This document shows, in pieces, positions 59,512 to 64,000 of a stretch of 64,000 nucleotides of DNA. The DNA comes from Escherichia phage LHE287. The first letter of the stretch is position 1. Every line of letters starts with the position of its first letter. The stretch lies in sequence record PP761450.1. One strand, written 5' to 3'. A program made the translations under genes and the position numbers. The notes beneath the pieces were generated by a model. That model was not told the origin of the DNA. It saw nothing but the letters and a program-made list of their open reading frames with translations, and did no database searches.

Positions 59512-59835
59512 TTATTTGCGCAGGGCAACCACGAGTTCAGCGAGTTCACCCATGGTCGGGTCGTCGCCTTTACTACCTAGCCACCCGTCGTCGATTTCGA
59601 CCTGAAACTCTTCTTCGAGGTCCATTACAATTTCGATAGCGTCCAGTTCATCACCGCCGAGGTCTTTCTTGGTACGGAGGCCAGCCAGCTTGTCCAGGGC
59701 GTCCTCGTTCTGAGATGCCACGTCGTCCAGCAATTTGCGCTTGTCATCGTCACGCCACAGATCCATATTCAGATTGTCAGTGGCGTACTGAGCCAGATGA
59801 CGCATGACTTCAACATATGTTGGCTTACTGCTCAT
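59512..59835 (-). CDS. Acyl-carrier-protein-like protein lacking the phosphopantetheine-attachment serine
   Basis: DLGGDELDAIEIVMDLEEEFQVEIDD aligns to the ACP core [26 protein letters not shown] with Ser replaced by Glu; about 45-aa N-terminal extension. Confidence 0.6.
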   Translation of the reverse strand: MSSKPTYVEVMRHLAQYATDNLNMDLWRDDDKRKLLDDVASQNEDALDKLAGLRTKKDLGGDELDAIEIVMDLEEEFQVEIDDGWLGSKGDDPTMGELAELVVALRK

Positions 59836-59877: not shown

Positions 59878-62121
59878 TTAGATTTTGATTTCTTTCTCTG
59901 TCAGTTCGGCAGTGACCTTGTACTTCACGCCATCCACTTCAACTTCCATGGTGGACTCTTCCAGGTCGAGGTCGGTGAACCAGCCGTGGCCAGCAACGAT
60001 ACCATACACCACTTTAGACAGTGTCTTGTTCAGGGCACGGACTTCGGTGATGGCCGCCTTGGCAGCAGCGTCGATCCAGTTTTCGATCAGCTGTTTCTGT
60101 AAGGCTTCAGGCACGGCAGTGATCATAGGAGACTTCACGAATGCTTCGTACTCTTTCAGAGCATTGGCGATGAACAAGTCACCAGCATTGAGTTTCTTGT
60201 TCTCTGCGATCTTCTTCTGTACTGCCGCGATGCTCGGTAGTGAAGACGCCCCGGCGATCTTCACGTTCAGCTCACGGCTCATGTAGAAGTCGGTAGACTC
60301 TTTGGTCTCAGTCTTCGGTGAGAAGCCGTAATCGCGGATGCCGTAGGAGGACAGGAACTCGGCCGCCTCAGCGCCGTACTGTACTGCCAGGCCTTTGGCG
60401 TTACCCTTACCAACCAGGGCGTCTCGATAGAACTTCAGCACCTTCTGCTTGCCTTTCAGGGCTTCCAGACGGACATTATCCGCAAAGAACTGAGCAGCAC
60501 TGATGTTCTTGACCATGGCGCGGTTGACCAGCGGTACGCTTTCCAGGTTCAGGACAAACACTTCCGGGCCACCAAACACGTGGACGCCCATTTCGATCAG
60601 CTTCTGTACAACTTCGATATCAGCCTTGAACGGCAGAGTCTTCACGTTAATGATACCGTCTTTGACGATGGTGTAGTTGCGCCACTGGAAAGTATCCAGT
60701 TCTTCAGGCAGGCCAAACTTCTTCTGTGCGAATTCAGGCACAGCCACAGTACCGTGTTGAATTGTACGCACACTGATGTTCGGGCGCTCGGAGTTATAGA
60801 CCAAATCACTGATTGGCACAACACCCAGATCGTTGGTAGGTTCGAACGTCGGGTTCCACTCTTCGTGTTCTGCCAGCTTGAGAGCCAGGGCTTTACGCTC
60901 TTCTTTGGACTGAGCATTCGCGATCTGTTCTGCCAGCTTGTCTTCGGTGTCGTCGGTTTTCTGCACAGTACCGCGCCCGATACTCTTATAGGAGAACATC
61001 GGATGCTTGGTAGCAACAGGTACACCAGCTTCAGCCAGGTACGTCAGCACATCAACGACGGTGGTCGCATCTTCAGCCGGAACCAGGTCATAGTCAATAC
61101 CGTCAACGCCGCGCAGCTGGTCGTCAACAATCGCCTGAACCAGATCGTTCTTGATGTTGGAGTAGTCCTGCTTGGTGAAGCAGTTGCTGTACTGTTTGAT
61201 GAAGCGAACGTCGCCCGTCTTCTTCAGCGCAGCCCAAACCAGATCTGCGTCCATAGTGTGTACACCGTAGAACGCCAGCACGTATGCCGCCTGGATGTCC
61301 GTCAGGCTATCCATCTGGTCGATCATGTTAGGGTTTACAACCCACAGCTTGGTGACGCTCTCAGGGATGCTCACATAGCCGACCGGGTGAGAGTCATCGT
61401 CCTGCACCGCCAGTACTGTTGCCACACCGTTTTCGACGTAGATGGCATGGGTGTAGATGACTGGGACATCAACTTTCACCTTCGGCACTGATGACTTCAG
61501 CACGTTTTCCAGTTCGGTCTGGTATTCGGTCTGACCTTCGGCAAACACATGAGTCGCGCCAGAGCGCTCGGACATCAGAGCCAGCAGTTCGCGGTTACAG
61601 TGCCAGCCGTATTCGATGAAAGTAATGTTATCGAACGCAGAAGGCAAGGTTTCGGCGACGGCCAGGATTTCGTTTGAGCGCCAGCAGTTGTCATAACCAT
61701 CGGTCATGAATGCCAGGTTGTTGACGTAACCAGGTTTCTTCAGGTCACGCGCAGTATCCATCGCCAGTTTCAACGGCTCAACGAAGCCAGTACATCCGGA
61801 CGGTTGCAGGAAGCGATCGATCAGTTTGTTCAGCTCGCTCAGGTCAGACGCAGCACTAACCTGGCGGCCAGCGAACACAGTACCAAAGTCGCCTTTGGAG
61901 GAGAAATACAGAACGCTCACAGTGTCTTCCGGTTTCACCAGGGAAGGCAGGTTCTCCTTCAGATGCTTACGGACTTCAGGGAGCGCACGGTACATAGAGC
62001 CGGAAATGTCTACAACGATTACATGGTTGGACGGGGTAGCAGTCGCAACCGCATTCTTAAATTCTAATGATTCAATCATTGTTCTCTTCGCCTTGTGCGT
62101 AAGGGTTAAGTTCAGACTCAT
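59878..62121 (-). CDS. von Willebrand factor A (vWA/MIDAS) domain protein, large
   Basis: N-terminal HVIVVDISGSM (DxSxS MIDAS motif); about 600 aa of C-terminal sequence without recognisable motifs; the true start may be the internal ATG at 62079 (better RBS). Confidence 0.7.
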   Translation of the reverse strand: MSLNLTLTHKAKRTMIESLEFKNAVATATPSNHVIVVDISGSMYRALPEVRKHLKENLPSLVKPEDTVSVLYFSSKGDFGTVFAGRQVSAASDLSELNKLIDRFLQPSGCTGFVEPLKLAMDTARDLKKPGYVNNLAFMTDGYDNCWRSNEILAVAETLPSAFDNITFIEYGWHCNRELLALMSERSGATHVFAEGQTEYQTELENVLKSSVPKVKVDVPVIYTHAIYVENGVATVLAVQDDDSHPVGYVSIPESVTKLWVVNPNMIDQMDSLTDIQAAYVLAFYGVHTMDADLVWAALKKTGDVRFIKQYSNCFTKQDYSNIKNDLVQAIVDDQLRGVDGIDYDLVPAEDATTVVDVLTYLAEAGVPVATKHPMFSYKSIGRGTVQKTDDTEDKLAEQIANAQSKEERKALALKLAEHEEWNPTFEPTNDLGVVPISDLVYNSERPNISVRTIQHGTVAVPEFAQKKFGLPEELDTFQWRNYTIVKDGIINVKTLPFKADIEVVQKLIEMGVHVFGGPEVFVLNLESVPLVNRAMVKNISAAQFFADNVRLEALKGKQKVLKFYRDALVGKGNAKGLAVQYGAEAAEFLSSYGIRDYGFSPKTETKESTDFYMSRELNVKIAGASSLPSIAAVQKKIAENKKLNAGDLFIANALKEYEAFVKSPMITAVPEALQKQLIENWIDAAAKAAITEVRALNKTLSKVVYGIVAGHGWFTDLDLEESTMEVEVDGVKYKVTAELTEKEIKI

Positions 62122-62287
62122 CAGCGGCTTCGATGCGCGTCTTTACAGAGTCCAGCATATTGTTGATAAATTCACGAGACTGCTCCAGCTGAGCCAAGAG
62201 CACATCCTTTGGAGCATAGTTCTGAATGCAAGCCGGAATACTTTCAGACGTCGCCTTCAGGTCGGTAAAACATTCTTTCAGTATCAT
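62072..62287 (-). CDS. Hypothetical small acidic protein
   Basis: 71-aa ORF between NadV and the vWA gene. Confidence 0.4.
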   Translation of the reverse strand: MILKECFTDLKATSESIPACIQNYAPKDVLLAQLEQSREFINNMLDSVKTRIEAADESELNPYAQGEENND

Positions 62288-62389
62288 TTGATCTCACTTA
62301 ACAGAGACGACGCCCTGTTGGGATTTAATAGCGGTCTTCACAGGCATCAGGTTTCCCTCAAAACAGGGGAGTTGCCTCCCCTTCGGTTA

Positions 62390-64000
62390 TCAGATTTGTG
62401 AGGCCAGTTCTGTCACCAGAGGAGCGGCACGAACACGCGCATCTTCCAGTGTTTGAGTATTGAAGAACTCGCCATCACGATACACCAGCTGGTGCTGGTT
62501 GTCGGCGTCTTGCACCTGATCAAAGGTGATACCGTCAACCAACACTAGTTTACCCTGAGAGTCTTTAATGACTTTAAGGAAACCACGCGCAGACTTTTTA
62601 GTCCCGCCTTTATCGGTCTTCGGCTCTTTGAAGATCTCACGGAATTCACCGTTCACTTTACCAGCCGTGGCTTTCACTGCTGTGCCAGTACTGTCACGGG
62701 TGTTCATCTGGTAGGTGTAGGAACCGATACCGAACACCACGTTGATGGAAGCGAAGTTCCGGTCAGCCAGACGGCTAAAGATCTGGTCTTCACGCGCCAG
62801 GGTGATAGAATCACCGTAGATCAGGCCGATGTGCTCATCCAACAGGAAGTGCCCAGTTTCAGTCTGGGTGCCACCAAAGATCTCCCACAGGCGCTGGATA
62901 GAGCCGACCGCTTCTGAACGGCTGATGATATTACGGTCATCTACCATCAGAGAGTTGATCGTGCCTTCGCCTGTGATCAGGTGATAGGTGTTCGTCTCTT
63001 CGATGTGGATAACTTCGGTGCTGCTAGACACGCCGCTGATGTTCAGCGTAGCGCGGTCTTTGAACCCCTCGATGCGGTAGCCGCCAACGATGTGTACAGG
63101 GTCGCCCGAGTCGGGGCGAATCACGACTTTACCATTGCGCGCCATGATAATGTCTTTCAGGCGAGGCAGATAGTCGTCGATGACCTGCCAGTAATCCCAC
63201 GCATCAGACACGATGCTGACGATGCCATCAGGATACACGTCCTGCACCAGGCGGCGGAAGGTTTCGAATTCGCCATCCTTCGTGCCCATACACATCACCG
63301 CATGTTCCGTTGCGGCAACCGACCCAGCAACGACATAGTCTTCGTCGATGTCTGCGCCATAATACTCTTCTACGAAGTCCAGGGCAGGGTTGGTATCGGT
63401 GCCTTTGAAGAACACCAGATGACCGGAACCGGAAGACGCGGCATCATGCCACCCGCTCATACCACGAAAGGAGAAGTCGTGGCCTTGGTAGTCGATGAAC
63501 CAATGGTCCGGTGATACTCCCGTAGCGAGGGCAGCTTTCACCATCAGTGCCTTGTAATGCAAAGCTATGGTGGCGTTCGTCATCGGCTTCCAGATCTCAG
63601 AGCTGAACACAGTCTCCAGATAGTTGGTCAGCCAGTAGAACTCCGGCAGGGTATTGAACATCACATACACCGGAACGCCATACGGGCACATGGTACCTTC
63701 AGGCAGCGCGCGGACTTCGATAGGCAGGTAGCCGAGGTCATGCAGGGCTTCAATATGCTCTGTGCCGACGCGGCCTGGACCCAGGACTTTGTTCATGCGA
63801 CGGGCATACTTCTTCAGCACCTTGGCCTTCGGGCGCTGGAAGAATGCTTCGTCAAACAGTTCGTGGAACCAGGTCATGAAGCCCTGGATGCCCCAGACCA
63901 CCACGCCGTTCTTCGGCAGGTGAGAGTTGAACAGTTTGTTAGAGCGCGGAGTTCCGTTGGAGAACACCAGCTCACTGCCTTCAGGGAACTGATAGATGTG
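62390..64000 (-). CDS. nadV: Nicotinamide phosphoribosyltransferase family protein (NadV/NAMPT-like), N-terminus beyond window end
   Basis: NAMPT-like blocks (EGTMCPYGVPVYVMFNTLPEFYWLTNYLET; GHDFSFRGMSG; RPDSGDP); the frame stays open upstream of the GTG at 63967 to the window edge, so the 5' end is truncated. Confidence 0.8.
   Translation of the reverse strand, partial: HIYQFPEGSELVFSNGTPRSNKLFNSHLPKNGVVVWGIQGFMTWFHELFDEAFFQRPKAKVLKKYARRMNKVLGPGRVGTEHIEALHDLGYLPIEVRALPEGTMCPYGVPVYVMFNTLPEFYWLTNYLETVFSSEIWKPMTNATIALHYKALMVKAALATGVSPDHWFIDYQGHDFSFRGMSGWHDAASSGSGHLVFFKGTDTNPALDFVEEYYGADIDEDYVVAGSVAATEHAVMCMGTKDGEFETFRRLVQDVYPDGIVSIVSDAWDYWQVIDDYLPRLKDIIMARNGKVVIRPDSGDPVHIVGGYRIEGFKDRATLNISGVSSSTEVIHIEETNTYHLITGEGTINSLMVDDRNIISRSEAVGSIQRLWEIFGGTQTETGHFLLDEHIGLIYGDSITLAREDQIFSRLADRNFASINVVFGIGSYTYQMNTRDSTGTAVKATAGKVNGEFREIFKEPKTDKGGTKKSARGFLKVIKDSQGKLVLVDGITFDQVQDADNQHQLVYRDGEFFNTQTLEDARVRAAPLVTELASQI

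Follow-up and report, generated by a model that had tools for sequence, protein, structure and literature searches.

The gene that runs off the end of the 64,000-nucleotide stretch of Escherichia phage LHE287 analysed here (PP761450.1; hereafter the window) is very probably the namat of a NARP1 operon, whose partner adps would lie just beyond the window edge and which would rebuild NAD+ after the action of an NAD+-depleting defence. As established by Osterman et al., the NARP1 operons, which pair a Prs-like with a Nampt-like gene, work by a route other than PRPP and NMN synthesis: ADP-ribose is pyrophosphorylated by Adps, and the resulting ADPR-pyrophosphate (ADPR-PP) is combined with nicotinamide by Namat to yield NAD+ (bioRxiv 10.1101/2024.02.11.579819). 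NARP2 is distinguished from this by a separate Nampt clade that is partnered with an Nmnat, and no phage with both pathways was found in that study (bioRxiv 10.1101/2024.02.11.579819). Since the characterised homologues work in this way, we propose that a SIR2-, TIR- or SEFIR-type defence of the host would cleave NAD+ to ADP-ribose and nicotinamide, that Adps would use ATP to convert the ADP-ribose to ADPR-PP, and that on Namat nicotinamide would displace the pyrophosphate, giving NAD+ in a single step and permitting phage replication to continue. A candidate role in NAD reconstitution as counter-defence had already been put forward in the first-pass annotation and is still the best-supported one; in LHE287, we infer both the counter-defence phenotype and the specificity of the enzyme from these homologues.

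The frame occupies positions 62390-64000 of the minus strand and comprises 536 codons followed by a TGA stop (62392-62390) and, directly after it, an in-frame TAA; it is still open at the edge of the window. In an alignment with the 554-aa protein of Escherichia phage AV101, to which the product is 99% identical, position 64000 falls on codon 19 (His) of the protein encoded by AV101 and Escherichia phage YX22. Codons 19-554 are hence present, and the first 18 codons (54 nt), for which AV101 and YX22 encode MSMRHLDPIHAIDFYKSG, including the start, lie outside, in agreement with the earlier description of the N-terminus as truncated and of the partner gene as absent from the window. These 18 codons include an Asp13/Tyr15 pair, found in both AV101 and YX22, which in the Namat crystal structure supplies the last part of the nicotinamide pocket in the opposite protomer (PMC12774641). 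The listed 525-aa ORF with a GTG start (62390..63967) is a truncation artefact, given that the minus-strand frame is still open at 64000, and the plus-strand ORFs of the interval (e.g. 62981..63514) were set aside as antisense by-products rather than genes because the great majority of nucleotide substitutions between the window and its relatives leave the minus-strand protein unchanged. At the nucleotide level the namat region is 98.3% identical to YX22, 98.0% to AV101 and 93-96% to other Agtrevirus and Kuttervirus phages of the Ackermannviridae; YX22 and AV101 are again the best matches (97%) for the last 24 kb of the window. We regard LHE287 as an Agtrevirus-like member of this family. Horizontal acquisition was considered from base composition: the GC content of namat (0.54-0.56) compares with about 0.49-0.53 nearby, but the neighbouring vWA gene reaches similar values.

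Profile and structure comparisons bear out the earlier recognition of a NAMPT-family gene. The protein matches the Pfam NAPRTase model PF04095 (4e-32), the NCBIfam model PRK09198 (7e-136; 453 bits against a cut-off of 405) and PHROG 448, 'nicotinamide phosphoribosyl transferase' (2e-187). Its best matches in the PDB are 9W5X and 9W5W (1e-135, 456 bits), the structures of the SPbetaL1 Namat solved by Lan et al. (PMC12774641), compared with 1e-50 and 174 bits for human NAMPT. The entries 9KE8/9KEO are its second-best structural relative. The core residues F176, R179, D202, H233, R295, D297, G396 and D397 (numbered on the fragment; adding 18 gives the full-length number) are invariant with the Namats of SPbetaL1, Bas63 and FADO. 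They comprise the nicotinamide-stacking Phe, an Arg, the specificity Asp, the catalytic His, the Arg and Asp of RPDSGD and a GD dipeptide, such that all core positions inside the window are kept. In the SPbetaL1 enzyme, which is 48% identical to the protein, their counterparts are Phe189, Arg192, Asp215, His245, Arg306, Asp308 and Gly360-Asp361. The codon for the catalytic His, which occurs in an ATEH motif in an invariant column, lies at 63302..63304 (minus strand; fragment His233, full-length His251, SPbetaL1 His245). The RPDSGD strand is encoded at 63101..63118 (minus strand; invariant columns R295-G299), and the Arg and Asp within it align with Arg306 and Asp308 of SPbetaL1; the R306G and R306A mutations abolish the activity of the SPbetaL1 Namat (PMC12774641; bioRxiv 10.1101/2024.02.11.579819).

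The preference of Namat for ADPR-PP is conferred by a selectivity clamp, which is formed by a variable loop (SCL) and a helix motif (SCH) of the form GSX-phi-X-phi-X-phi-TRD (PMC12774641). Using the alignment, a tally across the family and this published signature (PMC12774641), we located the SCH as GSYTYQMNTRD at 62693..62725 (minus strand). At 10 of 11 positions it agrees with the Namat signature; position 3 is Tyr and position 7 is Met. It shares with SPbetaL1 the pattern GS-ar-T-ar-Q-x-N-TRD. In the alignment, other Namats have GSFTYQYNTRD or GSYTYQYMTRD, and the KVP40 Nampt has GGGLLQQLDRD. The motif is thus clearly of the Namat rather than the Nampt type as judged from its sequence, with one non-canonical stacking residue: where LHE287 has Met, SPbetaL1 has Tyr396, which stacks on the adenine (PMC12774641). 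The SCH pattern is common to all of the best 80 relatives in IMG/VR, among which position 7 is occupied by Tyr in 66, Phe in nine, Met in two, His in two and Leu in one, and an Adps-like gene occurs near both of the loci with Met. The SCL, the β1-β2 loop after TPR, reads S-N-K-L-F-N-S-H-L-P-K-N (63908..63943, minus strand) and is four residues longer than that of SPbetaL1, with Lys-Leu-Phe in place of Arg40, the Lys aligning with that Arg. By the published rule, the third residue of the SCL is Arg, Lys or Tyr, and in the Lys and Tyr cases adenine stacking falls to the fourth (PMC12774641). The Lys of LHE287 fits this rule for the third residue; the one after it is Leu (and the next Phe), as against Trp in Bas63 and Tyr in FADO at this fourth position. 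Hence, two of the three adenine-stacking positions are non-aromatic, namely SCH position 7 (Met) and SCL position 4 (Leu, with Phe as the next residue). The clamp residues are identical across Agtrevirus, Kuttervirus and Taipeivirus, which indicates that the non-canonical ones are a lineage trait under selection.

The other departure from SPbetaL1 is a variable-length insertion after RPDSGDPVHIVGG, encoded at 62906..63079 (minus strand) and delimited by a two-segment alignment to 9W5X together with the alignment to homologues. It has 58 residues as against 11 in the SPbetaL1 Namat, that is, 47 extra residues after the RPDSGDP strand. We rejected the idea that it represents a novel domain: the site is an indel hot spot, ranging from 21 to 102 aa across 80 viral relatives, and the validated Bas63 Namat has an insert about 30 residues longer still at the same site, following RPDSGDPVHIV. 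As the site varies across the family and the longer insert of Bas63 occurs in a genetically validated Namat, the insertion should not stand in the way of function. For placing it or the clamp residues, a single-sequence AlphaFold2 model of the 536-aa fragment was of no use (mean pLDDT 34.7, pTM 0.24).

The closest genomes show what probably lies beyond the edge. In both AV101 and YX22 a 284-codon Prs-like gene is located directly upstream of namat on the same strand, and its TGA stop overlaps the ATG of namat by 4 nt (ATGA; GTAAAATGAGC). The identical gene pair and junction recur in Kuttervirus allotria and Taipeivirus Menlow, the two-gene block is at least 80% covered in 62 phage records, and among the best 80 IMG/VR relatives a same-strand Adps-like gene is present within 2.5 kb in 75; of the five without one, two sit at contig ends that leave 0 and 486 nt of sequence upstream. 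The Prs-like protein contains the Pfam Pribosyltran and Pribosyltran_N domains but scores below the cut-offs for the true Prs families: 108 bits against 113 for TIGR01251 and 51-94 against 296-536 for the other NCBIfam Prs models. Its best PDB match to a Prs is only 6e-18, and it matches PHROG 619 at 1e-90. It is 26-35% identical to the validated Adps proteins of Bas63, SPbetaL1 and FADO, and its K182 aligns with K162 of the SPbetaL1 Adps, an enzyme that is killed by the K162A mutation (bioRxiv 10.1101/2024.02.11.579819). The AV101/YX22 neighbour thereby displays the marks of an Adps, namely a Prs fold outside the true Prs families, the catalytic Lys and association with a Namat. Likewise, in the tables of Osterman et al. 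the orthologues from SKML-39 and P46FS4 are marked 'Adps-associated', and the Adps proteins of these phages are marked as associated with Namat (bioRxiv 10.1101/2024.02.11.579819). Extrapolating from these close relatives, adps, a Prs-like ADP-ribose pyrophosphokinase gene, should be present in LHE287; it would begin about 50 nt beyond the edge and would be translationally coupled to namat through the ATGA overlap. That it is intact there we infer rather than read, because the operon has been deleted or has decayed in RPN242, ZQ1 and Limestonevirus.

The same junction bears on the make-up of the operon. As adps and namat overlap in the relatives, no third gene intervenes between them, and no Macro (Adpp), RyR (RyDEP) or other informative domain was detected in the five genes that lie upstream of the operon in AV101 or in the four that follow it in the window. 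We therefore classify the locus, on its gene content, as a plain two-gene NARP1 and not as the NARP1-AP type (Adps-Adpp-Namat), which has the Adps and Namat core in common with it and differs in possessing, within the operon, Adpp, a Macro-domain ADPR-1''-phosphate phosphatase.

Where the operon is kept, both of its genes are evidently under strong purifying selection: the dN/dS of namat is 0.03-0.05 against AV101, YX22 and allotria and 0.10 against Menlow, and that of adps is 0.04-0.07. Among close relatives it is also evidently dispensable and has been lost by independent deletions. For ZQ1, A221, fGh-Ecl02, PC3 and PH4, very closely related Agtrevirus phages of E. coli and Enterobacter, the match to the window ends at 62083, and reading of the ZQ1 locus revealed a complete deletion with both genes gone. 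In RPN242 the first 49 codons of adps are joined out of frame to a 145-nt fragment of namat, and in the Dickeya phage Ds20CZ (Limestonevirus) a 110-codon ORF consists of codons 1-7 of adps followed, without a change of frame, by the final 103 codons of namat. Each remnant inspected reflects one deletion that hit both genes. In a survey by Sørensen et al., the gene pair was present in 8 of 14 Agtrevirus genomes (PMC10791037). There is a slim chance that NARP1 is counter-selected in some hosts, either by an immunity that senses Adps, Namat or ADPR-PP or through aRES-type defences that make NARP1 useless, or else that donor specificity is altered by the form of the clamp found in Ackermannviridae, with Met at SCH position 7 and Leu-Phe in the SCL.

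One reading of the operon apart from defence is that adps-namat acts as a general NAD+ booster or recycler for replication irrespective of immunity, using, for example, ADP-ribose from other sources. The operon does lie on the minus strand, amid a long series of genes for replication and nucleotide metabolism, and the pair was first described in Agtrevirus as one for 'nucleotide metabolism' (PMC10791037). We nonetheless consider this very unlikely: in Bas63, ADPR-PP was seen only in the presence of a defence system and the deletion phenotype was likewise defence-dependent (bioRxiv 10.1101/2024.02.11.579819), and several viable phages that are very closely related lack the operon, a dispensability more in keeping with an accessory role than with one in core metabolism. 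The counter-defence reading is further in line with the NARP1 operons of Bas63, FADO and SPbetaL1, which overcome SIR2-HerA, DSR1, DSR2, Thoeris I and SEFIR (bioRxiv 10.1101/2024.02.11.579819). The counter-defence of Bas63 persists in a host without pncC and nadR. A 2024 review had also suggested a role for the gene pair in evading NAD+ depletion (PMC11721090).

The second alternative concerns the reaction itself: the protein could be a true nicotinamide phosphoribosyltransferase of the NARP2 or NadV type, making NMN from PRPP and nicotinamide, with a phage or host NMN adenylyltransferase completing NAD+. It shares the fold family and all the catalytic residues with Nampt, its database names are of the NAMPT/NAPRTase kind, and Namat enzymes themselves retain PRPP-dependent NMN synthesis in vitro (PMC12774641; bioRxiv 10.1101/2024.02.11.579819), because of which some Nampt-type activity may be present in LHE287 as well. 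However, the protein shares 47-50% identity with the validated Namats of Bas63, SPbetaL1 and FADO and only 32% with the validated Nampt of KVP40, which places it closer to Namat by identity as by bit score; it has the Namat-type clamp motif, with no equivalent of the GGG-LLQ-type SCH of the NARP2 Nampts. Further, every close relative whose namat is intact has adps next to it, the AV101 annotation lists no Nmnat, a crude six-frame motif scan found neither an NMNAT HxGH nor a Nudix box in the long ORFs of the window or AV101, and the two pathways were not found together in any phage surveyed (bioRxiv 10.1101/2024.02.11.579819). Thus, a Nampt identity appears highly improbable, and on sequence comparison the gene almost certainly codes for Namat, the nicotinamide ADP-ribose transferase of NARP1, not for a NARP2 Nampt. 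The 'NadV/NAMPT' name given in the first-pass annotation denotes the fold family rather than the probable reaction. The subtype was left undecided there; once outside data are brought in, the adjacent Prs-like adps of the closest genomes, the Namat clamp motif and the closeness to validated Namats settle it as NARP1 (Adps plus Namat). The remaining alternative, that namat is an orphan in LHE287 whose adps has been deleted or broken beyond the edge and which is decaying or acts alone, draws on the frequency of operon deletions in the lineage (the RPN242 remnant, the loss in ZQ1, the Limestonevirus fusion remnant) but is extremely improbable given that the remnants inspected lost both genes by the same deletion, that an intact namat comes with an intact adps in every genome inspected (YX22, AV101, allotria and Menlow), and that the namat frame of the window is undisrupted, with three non-synonymous against 32 synonymous changes from AV101.

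Among the characterised systems close to that of LHE287, the NARP1 of Bas63 (JohannRWettstein; gp79-gp80) has been validated in E. coli against SIR2-HerA and has the same adps-then-namat order. It is 47% identical in Namat and 35% in Adps, with a shared DDICDGGRTF motif in the latter and a similar Lys-type SCL (TPRSDKWF in Bas63, TPRSNKLF here). It differs in its clamp, where SCH position 7 is Tyr and SCL position 4 is Trp, and in the 45 nt that separate its two genes, whereas those of the relatives of LHE287 overlap. SPbetaL1 likewise has namat directly downstream of adps; it is a Bacillus phage, as opposed to the virulent Ackermannviridae phage with a Gram-negative enterobacterial host analysed here, and its Namat is the only one for which preference for ADPR-PP over PRPP and direct formation of NAD+ have been shown (PMC12774641; bioRxiv 10.1101/2024.02.11.579819). 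The NARP2 system of KVP40, which consists of NadV (Nampt) and NatV (Nmnat), has the fold family, the catalytic core and the NAD+-restoring purpose in common with the LHE287 gene, and differs in the identity given above, the GGGLLQQLDRD sequence in place of the clamp motif, a short SCL-equivalent loop and an Nmnat rather than a Prs-like partner. No biochemical or genetic test of any Ackermannviridae NARP1 was found in the literature examined.

The system is of an already known kind, as orthologues with 95% nucleotide identity are in the tables of the discovery paper and the distribution in Agtrevirus has been published (PMC10791037). What the analysis provides is a place in an experimentally defined counter-defence pathway for a protein annotated as 'nicotinamide phosphoribosyltransferase' in an Ackermannviridae phage that infects E. 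coli. It predicts that the phage would escape NAD+-depleting systems of the SIR2, TIR and SEFIR types but not those of the aRES type, which by the published logic would not be overcome because the operon has no Adpp. Since close relatives differ in carrying the operon, this could be of use when choosing Agtrevirus and Kuttervirus phages for therapy or biocontrol.

With regard to expression, a consensus scan called no promoter or terminator in the stretch of AV101 before adps. By eye, this stretch contains a hairpin and a perfect TATAAT, and the gene is also preceded by a GAGG ribosome-binding site. At the other end of the operon, the corresponding scan of 61900-64000 called neither element. 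RNA folding detects a 7-bp GC-rich hairpin (AGGGGAG-GCAA-CUCCCCU, followed by GUUUUG) at 62359..62382 of the minus strand, 8 nt past the namat stop; judged from its fold and given its short U-tract, it is possibly a weak transcription terminator that ends the operon, an assignment we make tentatively. A last observation comes from the Dickeya Limestoneviruses, across which the short ORF that joins the first seven residues of Adps to the C-terminal 103 residues of Namat has been kept.

The two-gene NARP1 pathway, in which the Prs-like Adps and the nicotinamide ADP-ribose transferase Namat rebuild NAD+, has been lost from close relatives of the window phage, as a reading of the loci in Escherichia phage RPN242 and phage ZQ1 reveals. 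The remnant in RPN242 (L008:3551-3821) is a single gene, gp114, coding for residues 1-49 of Adps followed by sequence read out of frame from a 145-nt fragment of namat. At the corresponding loss site in ZQ1 (L009:3801-4035), adps and namat are both absent and are replaced by 233 nt of unrelated filler. A further remnant occurs in the Limestonevirus Dickeya phage Ds20CZ (L092:4001-4333), where a 110-codon ORF joins the first seven codons of adps (MFRLKLN) in frame with the final 103 namat codons (TRDSTGT...). This fusion ORF shares 93% nucleotide identity with the Agtrevirus gene and carries the database name “nicotinamide phosphoribosyltransferase”; the window region is matched by all 19 of the 19 Dickeya records. 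In the PHROG profile phrog_12872 (547 positions), the N-terminal half matches Adps residues 1-222 and the C-terminal half Namat residues 208-536. Its source appears to be an Adps-Namat chimera, produced either by a deletion fusion or by mis-annotation, and annotation that relies on this profile could be misled.

Upstream of adps in phage AV101 (L001:14915-15010, minus strand), a hairpin, ACGTCCAG...CTGGGCGT, precedes an exact TATAAT, which lies some 30 nt 5' of the adps start and has no recognizable -35 element. This may be the NARP1 operon's own promoter, sited after a putative terminator that would serve the preceding gene. The third gene before adps in AV101 (L001:15533-15943, minus strand) codes for a 136-aa protein that matches the DUF3268 zinc-finger-containing domain over the domain's full length (2e-37); this gene was lost along with NARP1 in ZQ1 but is still present in RPN242.

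Directly downstream of namat in the window lies a 71-aa ORF (62072..62287, minus strand), for which a family search returned no match. It overlaps by 50 nt the gene for a 747-aa protein (59878..62121, minus strand) whose N-terminus carries a von Willebrand factor A domain (PF00092, 4e-7). As both are kept in relatives that have lost NARP1 (with truncation to 56 codons in ZQ1), they lie outside the NARP1 operon. A 107-aa protein (59512..59835, minus strand) contains an acyl-carrier-protein-like phosphopantetheine-attachment domain (PF00550, 2.8e-5, exceeding the family cut-off), which is unusual for a phage replication-gene region.

Among the 80 best IMG/VR relatives, adps lies downstream rather than upstream of namat in 23 of the 75 Adps-bearing loci. 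In many loci the two genes are separated by 450-1450 nt, an interval that could accommodate a third gene, for instance that for Adpp, the Macro-domain phosphatase of NARP1-AP. The nicotinamide-binding Asp215 (SPbetaL1 numbering) is replaced by Glu in 19 of the 80 proteins. The second-best solved relative of the window Namat (PDB 9KE8 / 9KEO; 1e-105), a 495-aa protein named “nicotinamide phosphoribosyltransferase”, has an intermediate type of clamp motif, GAQTYQRNTRD.
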